This document shows positions 21,755-33,663 of a stretch of 64,000 nucleotides of DNA, piece after piece (within the stretch, counting starts at the first letter, position 1; the number at the start of each line of letters is the position of its first letter). The stretch comes from Octopus vulgaris (taxonomy: Eukaryota). Location: assembly GCA_951406725.2 (NCBI GenBank), contig OX597826.1:67828001-67892000 (forward strand), in the 5' to 3' direction. A program made the translations under genes and the position numbers. The notes beneath the pieces are model-generated. The model had not been told where the DNA came from and did no database searches. It saw only the letters and a program-made list of their open reading frames with translations.

Positions 21755-22790
21755 GGTGTGTAAACGCGAAGATGGCGGAAGGGGTATGAGTAGTGTGCTG
21801 GATGGTGTGAAGATGGAAGTAAAAATCTCAATCAGCATGTTAAAGAAAATACTGACGAACTGCTAGCTGCAGTGAGTAATGAAAAGTACTTAGTGAATGT
21901 CAAACAATAGACAAAGCACTTGAGAAGAAAAAACAAATTTATGTAAAACTGCATTTAATCTCTTAGTTTATGAAGAATAATGCGGCGGAAAGAGGAAATG
22001 GCTGAAAACGGGAATTCTCAACAAATAAATACCGTAAATCCTCGAGTATAGTCCGCCCTTGAATATACTACGCAGGGGAATTTTAGTGGTTGTACCTCTG
22101 AAAAACCTACACCTTGTGTATAATAAGCATCTCTTCTCTAACTTGAGTCAAGGAGGTCTATATAACGTCCTTGGTTTGTAAAAAGGTATACAGTAACGTC
22201 CTTTATTATTATTGTACATATAACATAATGCAAACGTGTAGCGTTTTTGTGTATTTTGTTTGCAGAAAATAAAGAAATAACAGTAATAACAGTAATAGTA
22301 AAGTTTAATAAATGTTGCTTACTGCAAGTTATGGATGATTCTTTTATGACTTCATTGCTTTCAGGCTTAGCTTAAGGTATTTTCGCGCCCGACATCACAA
22401 AATGTGTCTGAATAAACATTGCCGGAGAGCAAATAGAGACTCGGACATTGCTTAGAAAATTTCTTTTTTAACCTCGTATATAGTAGGCACTAAAGATTTT
22501 GATCTTTAAAAATTTTGGGAAAAAAATTCGGATTACGCTCGAGGATTTTCGGTATATAGATAGATAAGTAGAAGGAATAAAGCTTGCAGGTCTCTATAAA
22601 TAATATGGGGCGGTTGACCCCAGTTTGTCACCTTTGTGAAGGTTGTGCGATGCGAGAGAATAGAAAGTGATCGTCACAATAGTTGAATGGTCCAAACTCT
22701 CTGAGAAACTTTACAGATATTGGACACATGATAATATTGCGAAGATCATCCACTGGGAAATGTCTAGGAAGTATGGAATTCATAACACTA
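21755..22790 (+). mobile_element. R4/Dong-like (RLE) non-LTR retrotransposon relic, interrupted by a MITE
   Basis: KREDGGRGMSSV (RT C-terminus), then a degenerate CCHC knuckle and HDNIAKIIHWEMSRKYGI at about 22630-22780. Confidence 0.75.
22030..22554. mobile_element. pogo/Tc2-like MITE
   Basis: TA-CCGTAAATCCTCGAGTATAGTCCG ... CGGATTACGCTCGAGGATTTTCGG-TA. Confidence 0.8.
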
Positions 22791-24510
22791 TTTAACATTG
22801 TTAAATAACTTTTCAAACTTCTTGCAAGTGTTCCAACATAGGTTGTCTCTCTACCACTCTGATTTCAAATGAATCAAATAACATTAATTATGCGCAATAA
22901 TACCTGCTCATGATAGATCTCTTTACCTTTTCCTTTGCAGTTTTGTATTCTGTAATACGTTTAAGTTGCCAATTCTCAGAATGAATTATGTTTTATGGTC
23001 ATATCACATTTCCTTACATCTGAACTCATATTTTTGAAGATTCTAATACATGTTTAAAGTAACCTTGTGATGCCACCATATAGATCCTCAGGGCATGCAT
23101 TTTACATTCAGAGACTATTTTTGTCGCTATCCATTTTCTTTCATACTCAGTCGAGAAAACTGATCTATATTCTTCCTGTGGTTAATCTGATTATTTGAAC
23201 CTGCATAACTAGAATAACGCCCTGTTTTTCAATCTTTAACACATTCTACCTTAGACACTGAACTGTCTTCTGGTTAATCTTCCCCTCACTGTGCTACACA
23301 CAGTTTTGTCTTCGTTTTGTAGCGCTCTACCTCCGAGAATGTCATTTTCTTCTGCTCTATCTCCAAACACATACATACGTACATACGTACATACGTACAT
23401 ATAATCAGTCATCAAGTGAGATCTAGAGAAGTGAGAAAATACCAAGTAGTGCGTAAGTTTTTAAAGAGGACTAGGCCCACGAGGTAAAGAATGACTGAAG
23501 GAGAAATTCAGATGAGTTGATATGGATGTAGAGGTACAGAGAAACACGATTAGGCTTCATATATATTAATACGCACACTCAAACGCACGAGCTAGAGAGC
23601 AGCTACAGAAACAAACAAGTTGAGAAGCGTCAGCGGCGAAAAGAAAACAACAGAAATGCAGAGTGCCGAGCCACCCTCTTGGAATGCGTTACAGTGACAG
23701 ACGCTGTGCTTTAATCATAGGAAGAATCAGCCCTGAAAGAAGCTGCAAGAAAAGGAGCTCCTGATATGAAACTGCAAGAAAGGGAGCTCCCCCCCCCCAC
23801 ACACACATGTATGAGATGTGTCGGAAAGGACACAACCAAACTCAAGCCCTGGAAATACATCGTGCCAGCCAGCACAGCCGCCTTCAAGCGGCGCCTGCAT
23901 AATGACAAGTCCTCTTACGGTATTTTGGAATCACGATTCGCCGCATGATGCACCTCAAAAATGAAGGGACCCCATGCGATACGAAGTGGAGGATCATAGA
24001 GTGGCCAGAATCAAACATTAGCGGGAGCTGATGCAGCAACGATCCTCAAAGACTCCATGAATCCAAAACTACTGTACACTCGAATAGAAATATACAGTCC
24101 CTCCATGGATTTCAAACGTATAGATGCTGCAAGCACGGGGTTCCTCGTTCTTCGATTTGAGCTGGAAAAGTCCTTATAGATTAAAAGCAATCGCCGAGCG
24201 TAATTCCCCGTCCCCCTTTTTTGATCAACATGAATAGGTCTAAGGTAGGTAACCCATCCGCACCGTCTCAGATATTGTATTCTTTTATTAATTGCTAAGT
24301 GACCATAAATTGCTGTCCCAGAGTTGCAGAGTTCTATTTATCATCGGCTTTAGAGGCTTTCGCGCCGTTCCATCGGCTAGGTCCTTTCTTGAAAGGAAAA
24401 CATTGGTCATTCTATGACACAATATAGACTTAAATGCACACAGATATATTACTGGCCAATGCTTTAGAGTGTGCTTAATTTCCGGGTATATGATACACTA
24501 ACGGTATGTA

Positions 24511-24577: not shown

Positions 24578-24628
<51 letters not shown>

Positions 24629-24723
24629 TCAATATAGGGTGGCAAAAAATTTCGTAGAATTTATTTGCCACCAGCGGCCTAGTGGGAAAAATTAAATAGT
24701 CATAGACCATTTATAAGTTCAAC

Positions 24724-25305
24724 ATCACAATCAAGGAATGGCCATAATAGGCCATTCACCCACTAGAAATAACAGCCAAGCTTCAACCGCAAAATAACAT
24801 TAATTCCGCAAACCAGGAGAAAATTAAAAAAACATTTACCCTGTAATTTCTTATACGATGCACCGTTTCATCTATTGTTTAATGGTAAACTAACCTGATT
24901 AAATTAAATCAAGCCAATCTTGATTTAATTTAATTTTCTGGTTAATTCCGTAATGGAATCGGCGGCTTATATTTGCTGCCGATAAATTTGGCGCGAGAGC
25001 GATGATTTGAAAATTTTAGGTCAGATATTGCCGAGGCAGGGATAGAGGTGCCTCGTGATAATATCTGCTCGGATCTGGCTGTTTCTTACTGACGAATCTA
25101 TCGGCCTATGGAAGATTGGCTTGATTTAATTTAATCAGGTTAGTTTACCATTAAACAATAGATGAAACGGTGCATCGTATAAGAAATTACAGGGTAAATG
25201 TTTTTTTAATTTTCTCCTGGTTTGCGGAATTAATGTTATTTTGCGGTTGAAGCTTTGGCTGTTATTTCTAGTGGGTGAATGGCCTATTACGGCCATTCCT
25301 TGATT

Positions 25306-25310
<5 letters not shown>
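24724..25310. mobile_element. HHR-bearing element with near-perfect ~198-bp inverted arms (24724-24921 / 25112-25310)
   Basis: Arms almost identical in reverse complement; right end abuts (TA)n; another copy of the terminus at 33546-33663. Confidence 0.92.
25082..25186 (+). ncRNA. Type I hammerhead ribozyme with canonical core and enlarged loop II
   Basis: Stem I TTTCTTA/TAAGAAA; CTGACGA 25089-95; stem II ATCTAT/ATAGAT; GAAA 25164-67; stem III CGGT-gc-ATCG; GUA cleavage predicted after 25179. Confidence 0.85.
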
Positions 25311-25347
<37 letters not shown>

Positions 25348-25400
25348 TATGTCTATATCCTCCTTCATATGTGTTGTGTTTATCTTCTGAATATATCCAG

Positions 25401-33428: not shown

Positions 33429-33528
<100 letters not shown>

Positions 33529-33545
33529 TATATATATATATATAT

Positions 33546-33663
33546 ATCACAATCAAGGAACGGCCATAATAAGGCCATTCACCCACTAGAAATAACAGCC
33601 AAAGCTTCAACCGCAAAATAACATTAATTCCGCAAACCAGGAGGAAATTAAAAAAAAACATTT
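33546..33663 (-). mobile_element. 3' terminal fragment of the 24724-25310 HHR element, embedded in (TA)n
   Basis: Near-identical to 24724-24838. Confidence 0.9.

Follow-up and report, generated by a model that had tools for sequence, protein, structure and literature searches.

Positions 24624-25310 of the window (the whole 64,000-nt stretch of the Octopus vulgaris contig OX597826.1 analysed here) are a single insertion of a young, non-coding tandem hammerhead repeat of about 484 nt, a non-LTR retrozyme. Two head-to-head arms of the repeat lie inside an (AT)n tract, and both were probably made by twin priming of the retrozyme RNA at two fixed sites by a borrowed Penelope-like enzyme. The antisense arm is the scar of this insertion.

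Structure of the insertion

The features of the insertion and its surroundings are listed below, with unit numbering starting at the predicted cleavage site.

24581..24623, no strand: left (AT)n target tract
24624..25310, no strand: whole insertion, two head-to-head arms of the ~484-nt hammerhead repeat inside an (AT)n tract
24624..24921, minus strand: inverted arm, unit positions 417-484 then 1-232; its outer end is start site B
24638..24672, minus strand: hairpin B, immediately inside start site B, with two-sided substitutions between sister families
24922..24931, plus strand: 10-nt filler at the junction; its sequence matches that of the inverted arm's end copied by fold-back
24932..25310, plus strand: direct arm, unit positions 237-484 then 1-131; its outer end is start site A
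24958..24983, plus strand: hairpin C, kept in both sister families
25022..25067, plus strand: hairpin D, kept in both sister families, less strictly
25082..25186, plus strand: type I hammerhead, predicted cut after 25179
25277..25298, plus strand: hairpin A, ending 12 nt ahead of start site A, with two-sided substitutions between sister families
25311..25338, no strand: right (AT)n target tract
33526..33663, minus strand: second short family-1 fragment, unit 17-131, ending at site A in (AT)n

The insertion thus has site B on the left and site A on the right, and its inverted arm carries the 3' half of the ribozyme only. According to the earlier note, an inverted duplicate of 25112-25310 lies upstream. 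We found this duplicate at 24724-24921, with 99% identity over 199 nt (one substitution and one 1-nt indel), but its limit had been set too short, as the arm continues about 100 nt further left, through unit positions 132-232, to the left end of the insertion at 24624-28. Since the arms are 99% identical, the locus is recent. The Penelope-type inverted layout proposed in the same note is also borne out, given that an inverted 5'-truncated arm, a one-sided tail and a (TA)n target are all present. Both flanks consist of (AT)n, in which a target-site duplication would not stand out. In the list of open reading frames of the window, no frame of at least 120 codons overlaps the insertion.

Directly upstream of the (AT)n target, 23810-24505 holds a decayed Penelope-like 3' end (a GIY-YIG remnant and a terminal repeat). 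It belongs to an old family, with 65-82% identity to its relatives, whose protein is similar to that of a young 727-codon family described below. On account of this age, we rejected the GIY-YIG fragment as a partner of the retrozyme.

The repeat and its sister family

Using the 381-nt direct arm as a query, we obtained long matches of 98-100% identity, often 484 nt apart, among the 40 scored of 1898 first-look candidates. Cutting the arrays at the predicted cleavage site yields a 484-nt unit with one ribozyme each; units in family-1 arrays measure 484-493 nt, and up to 9 full units follow each other in one arm. The 2.8-Gb genome contains 716 exact occurrences of a 26-nt core pattern (control, 0), and the site-B motif is found 4338 times at no more than one mismatch (control, 1), so the wider family comprises thousands of units, which fall into several subfamilies of 81-100% identity. 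We also identified a sister family (family 2) with a 474-nt unit, identical to family 1 at 355 of 484 positions and with 121 exact core matches. A profile scan of 0.9 Mb gave no third family.

By its layout (tandem, non-coding, one type I hammerhead per unit), the repeat classes with the animal non-LTR retrozymes. At the level of the family, at least two consecutive complete ribozymes are found. The window copy has a single sense ribozyme, one fewer than the two consecutive ribozymes by which a 2026 preprint calls a copy 'active', and with its antisense arm it is likely a dead end. The repeat itself is not an autonomous Penelope-like element: its 484-nt unit has no frame with reverse transcriptase (RT) and GIY-YIG, and there was no RT frame continuous with the repeat beside the 41 family-2 loci and 20 further loci. 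No promoter was identified for the repeat.

Words of the unit occur in sequencing runs of four organisms (A-D), among which no run is recorded as RNA, and contigs of organism B cover all 30 bins at 88% or more, so the family is likely common to related species. Contigs of three runs that we guess to be RNA cover the unit, and the unrelated repeat at 22000-22500 has a similar depth in them. This other repeat is present in high copy and shows high contig depth in all four runs compared.

Inverted insertions with two standard ends pair one A end with one B end

We mapped 100 insertions. The best hits supplied 19 of them, another 40 were taken as they follow each other on two contigs, and 41 belong to family 2, drawn from the first 100 of the 121 matches listed. 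Their outer ends fall at two sites, A at unit position 131 (129 in family 2) and B at 232-235 (227-229 in family 2). The sites are about 100 nt apart, each some 12-20 nt past a conserved hairpin, and 151 of the 152 intact ends adjoin (AT)n. Head-to-head insertions amount to 64 of the 100, the other 36 having no sizeable inverted arm. After setting aside 8 of these 64 for a non-standard or damaged end, all 56 inverted insertions with two standard ends pair A with B (14/14, 20/20 and 22/22, across the two sister families), and none pairs A with A or B with B. Some apparently direct copies carry a second arm of 4-22 nt that starts at the other site; such very short second arms were seen at loci L028, L047, L186, L189, L190, L203, L206, L261, L264, L267 and L268.

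Inner breakpoints are scattered over the unit

The antisense copy had been described as built in. Comparing inversion breakpoints across copies, as the earlier note had suggested, we found the opposite: at 57 junctions, the breakpoints differ between the two arms and from locus to locus, and spread over the whole unit. The breakpoint of the window copy does lie in loop II, as had been seen, but given this spread its position there is incidental. The arms come within 10 nt of symmetric in 2 of 34 family-1 and 0 of 23 family-2 insertions, leaving 55 of the 57 asymmetric. Microhomology is present at 34 of these junctions, 5 are blunt and 18 hold a short insert. The cDNA copies read through the ribozyme cut site, and inner ends are not enriched there (10/87, p 0.10, and 4/62, p 0.68), as they should be if cut linear RNAs had served as templates.

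In the window, the inverted arm ends at 417 and the direct arm begins at 237, with 10 nt of filler between them and a 3-nt microhomology on each side of the filler. The hairpin reported earlier at this junction is real, and 16 nt at 24919-24934 match unit positions 425-440 exactly. It is a local fill and not the origin of the second arm. The junction does record a copying event, but the template switch that had been read into it is better understood as two separately primed cDNAs joined with a fold-back fill.

Three individual cases deserve mention. At L170:990-2166 (= L209), in family 2, one inner end lies exactly at the predicted cut site, after a short repeat of the cut-site sequence; this single case may reflect a linear cut template. 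The inversion junction of L153:2126-2800, in family 1, is duplicated with the same breakpoints twice, which suggests a local rearrangement after insertion. Finally, 3 of 62 family-2 inner ends (L198, L199 and L207) fall at unit position 373, beside hairpin D, a possible pause site.

The two arms share a haplotype

For family 1, we dropped 7 complex or duplicate loci and skipped 2 for short overlap, leaving 32 insertions. Their arms differ from each other at 0-3 positions, and in 27 of the 32 no arm of another locus is closer. Locus-private variants are common to both arms in 13 of the 32 loci (19 variants), with 67 variants in one arm only. In family 2, arms are closest to each other in 16 of 17 insertions, the exception being L201, whose arms differ more than other loci do. 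The haplotype comparison is uninformative for the window copy, with 1 difference in 189 nt between its arms and a median of 1.5 to others.

The median divergence between full units is 2 substitutions for 57 pairs inside one insertion and 17 for 2023 pairs from different insertions. Of the private variants, 24 in family 1 and 7 in family 2 (31 together) are carried by every unit of their insertion, and 60 and 30 by a single unit, while unit-specific polymorphisms common to several loci were found 8 times in family 1 and 0 in family 2. This homogeneity, together with the fixed private variants, fits a monomer bottleneck followed by rolling-circle copying, although gene conversion could also produce it. 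Some variants are periodic: one alternates in phase in both arms of L200, and variants of L038 and L051 have periods of 3 and 2, hinting at dimer or trimer circles. In L197 and L051 the periodic variants of the two arms do not run in phase, those of L152 are irregular and L268-L270 show no period.

A conserved hammerhead with an extended helix II

The claim of a hammerhead at 25082-25186 with all core nucleotides, a 7-bp stem I and a 6-bp stem II was confirmed. Stem I pairs 25082-88 with 25180-86 and is followed by the core at 25089-95; stem II pairs 25096-101 with 25158-163 and is followed by GAAA at 25164-67; stem III pairs 25167-70 with 25175-78, and the GUA lies at 25177-79. The canonical core nucleotides and the three helices of a type I hammerhead are thus present. 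The G10.1-C11.1 closing pair is absent: family 1 has A-U in its place, and family 2 an A.A that is followed by a G-C pair. Loop II is indeed 56 nt long and has the hairpin of its own that had been noticed (25113-25146, pair probability 0.99), but the term giant loop does not hold for most of it, as this hairpin is part of an extended helix II, a long helix with internal loops that stands in place of the loop. The ribozyme is of the ordinary kind, with an unusually long helix II.

The fold has an energy of -28.7 kcal/mol, compared to a mean of -16.3 for shuffled sequences (z -4.12; 0 of 200 shuffles as good), and a scan of both strands gave 25082-25186 as the only hammerhead-like core in the 64-kb window. 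Rfam yielded no hammerhead match at gathering score in the window, nor at E<=5 in 24600-25400.

The earlier view of a conserved hammerhead within a larger structured RNA was borne out by covariation among genomic copies, a comparison that it had itself proposed. In an alignment of six ribozyme sequences, both partners are altered in 5 of 35 pairs, compared to 0.9 in shuffles (0/500), a figure inflated by the relatedness of the sequences. Across ten full units, two-sided change is seen in 14 of 122 predicted pairs, some of which lie in hairpins A and B and in the loop-II hairpin. The two spacer hairpins that had been named are present, and hairpins C and D are conserved in both sister families, D less strictly. 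All four letters occur at the free core position in a set of 57 distinct ribozyme strings (26, 16, 10 and 5 times), in which stem I has compensated variants and stems I and III covary; the search pattern itself fixed the core letters, whose invariance among these strings is thus not informative.

The designation of the window ribozyme as the best candidate for activity is contradicted by folding predictions, which leave out tertiary contacts and proteins. In both families, the stem III region (25167-25178) is self-complementary over 12 nt, and the predicted energy of this palindrome is -17.5 to -18.7 kcal/mol as a duplex and -0.2 to -1.0 as a hairpin. For a lone copy such as that of the window, stem III has a predicted probability of 0.03-0.04, and all ribozyme helices fall to 0 when the inverted arm is co-transcribed. 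One subfamily variant is predicted to fold well alone (0.91). For a natural tandem pair, the minimum-energy fold is a double hammerhead, with an inter-copy stem III at 0.98. Hence the active fold is predicted to appear as a double hammerhead in tandem copies, and not in the single copy of the window. Metazoan hammerheads are known to act as dimers by way of a palindromic loop III (PMC4209133).

Origin of the two arms

Tandem arrays, two fixed ends, strict A+B pairing, a haplotype shared by the arms and scattered breakpoints all support twin priming. The source arrays would be transcribed and adjacent ribozymes would fold as double hammerheads, releasing monomers that may then be circularised, as PMC7229834 describes for other retrozymes. 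At the target, an (AT)n tract, both strands would be cut by a borrowed Penelope-like enzyme; each would prime a cDNA on one RNA, one strand from A and the other from B. The polymerase would roll round this probably circular RNA, and repair would join the two unfinished cDNAs end to end. Mobilisation of retrozymes by Penelope-like elements is a hypothesis of PMC7229834. A Penelope-like protein does nick and extend both strands, with two internal sites at which it starts (PMC11167929), but this was in vitro and with no difference in start site between strands. The arm divergence of L201, the 8 of 64 non-standard ends, the out-of-phase or irregular periodic variants, the lack of a partner among the families compared and gene conversion as another source of the likeness between arms also count against twin priming.

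One could argue that the template was an uncut linear multimer from the source array, the ribozyme and circles having no part in transposition. Ribozyme mutants were without effect on Penelope-like insertion in vitro (PMC11167929), 8 of 9 Xenopus dimers were uncleaved (10.64898/2026.07.22.740005), the active fold of a single copy is predicted to be weak, and the units of L152 are heterogeneous. We nevertheless regard this alternative as rather unlikely, with only the unconstrained core position varying freely in the 57 ribozymes while stems I and III covary, and with 8 and 0 unit-specific variants common to several loci in families 1 and 2, of the type that inherited multimers would leave, compared to 31 private ones fixed in all units.

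We consider it improbable that a single priming event was followed by a switch. Here, a cDNA would start from A or B, the second arm would come from a fold-back or a jump to the new cDNA or to antisense RNA, and the one-sided tail from endonuclease resolution of the intermediate. The window junction has a real 10-nt fold-back, and one template would explain the shared haplotype. But a fold-back predicts symmetric arms, found within 10 nt at 2 of 57 junctions, and the second arm in many cases exceeds the first in length, or measures only 4-22 nt, and yet begins exactly at the other site; moreover, the tail ends match the measured RT start sites of another element (PMC11167929).

The weakest alternative, an active single ribozyme in a larger RNA regulated by a built-in antisense element, has in its favor the intact core and helices and the prediction that a read-through transcript would silence the fold completely, but is very improbable, with inversion points that differ at every locus, 36 of 100 insertions lacking a sizeable inverted arm, and arms of 99% identity at a recent locus.

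Returning to twin priming, we tentatively suggest, giving it somewhat less than even weight, a joint reading in which Penelope-type integration is obligatorily two-headed, performed by a protein dimer that binds one RNA at the two fixed sites and primes both target strands together, the retrozyme circle is rolled by both polymerases, and the ribozyme cuts only as a double hammerhead. If so, the inverted repeat and the one-sided tail would be a single phenomenon, the in-phase alternating variant of L200 would record both polymerases on the same circle, and monomer circles would stay intact.

Comparison with known systems

In the twin priming of L1, the two target strands prime two cDNAs, giving rise to an inverted 5' part; the template there is linear, and the position of the second priming event varies. 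Unlike in L1, both sites are fixed here, and each of the two cDNAs repeatedly crosses the cut site.

Animal non-LTR retrozymes, as presented in PMC7229834 and 10.64898/2026.07.22.740005, likewise consist of tandem, non-coding, AT-rich units with one type I hammerhead each, and they co-exist with Penelope-like elements; those of the axolotl share the palindromic loop III and dimeric cleavage (here predicted). The present units (484-493 and 474 nt) exceed the 150-450 nt of the former source and lie within the 51-972 nt of the latter. The octopus repeat differs in its helix II, extended by about 56 nt, in the A-U or A.A at the base of stem II, in its frequent head-to-head insertions with fixed ends, which the accessible text of the papers compared does not describe, and in that no homologous pLTR was found among the Penelope-like families and fragments searched here. 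Compared to endonuclease-bearing Penelope-like insertions (PMC3846280; PMC8557442), it has no ORF and a tail of about 100 nt instead of 30-40, both arms can be multimeric, and one-sidedness is strict (56/56).

The closest biochemical parallel is Poseidon of Anolis, studied in vitro (PMC11167929). In the accessible part of this paper, two internal RT start sites bound the tail, the target is AT-rich, both strands are nicked and extended, and the protein is predicted to be a dimer; it reports there no strand preference and no link to inversions, whereas here each insertion uses each site once. One-sided tails, retrozymes and two start sites are already published, and PMC8557442 treats the way in which Penelope-like elements come by their inverted ends and one-sided tails as an unsolved question. 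We did not find the strict A+B pairing in the literature on Penelope twin priming, nor in that since 2023 on dimers and both-strand initiation, of which few subscription papers were covered, nor a description of the present family in the accessible literature on octopus hammerheads, one passage of which counts hammerheads in squid. The value of the locus is its clean footprint, which extends to a sister family and three autonomous families, together with the double-hammerhead prediction. The insertions are small, young and numerous, and the sharp rule that they follow (one A and one B end, with a single haplotype) offers a route to testing how Penelope-type elements acquire inverted ends. A cis region of about 240 nt with two conserved hairpins suits the existing in vitro assay.

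Two-site ends in autonomous Penelope-like families

Ends at two sites, again in (AT)n, also occur in three Penelope-like families that are young and autonomous. In the 1312-codon family, all 8 inverted insertions with both ends readable combine a short and a long end; one further insertion runs into a gap, and another stops about 12 nt short of the long site. Two-site pairing was likewise seen in 3 of 3 insertions of the 727-codon family and 1 of 1 of the 781-codon family, which has RT and GIY-YIG matches.

We found no significant sequence common to the retrozyme repeat and these three families: local alignments gave p values of 0.30-0.90, and for end-anchored scores a fraction of 0.004-0.46 of positions was as good, inconsistently across sites. 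Nor did a non-exhaustive search reveal pLTR homology to the repeat in the three families and about 40 older fragments. A U-rich CCAC motif some 30-43 nt past site A, in the 727-codon family and the retrozymes, is weak and not significant.

The individual elements vary in their organization. The 1312-codon frame at L231:2442-6377 has a long Asn-rich insert and a tail of about 59 nt, and the terminal repeat of its family contains a hammerhead-like motif with an atypical core. The 727-codon frame at L272:319-2499, with copies of 98-100% identity, has a minimal hammerhead and a 72-nt tail. Lastly, L104:2268-5968 holds two frames (479 and 781 codons), a tail of about 32 nt and repeated promoter-like boxes in its terminal repeat.
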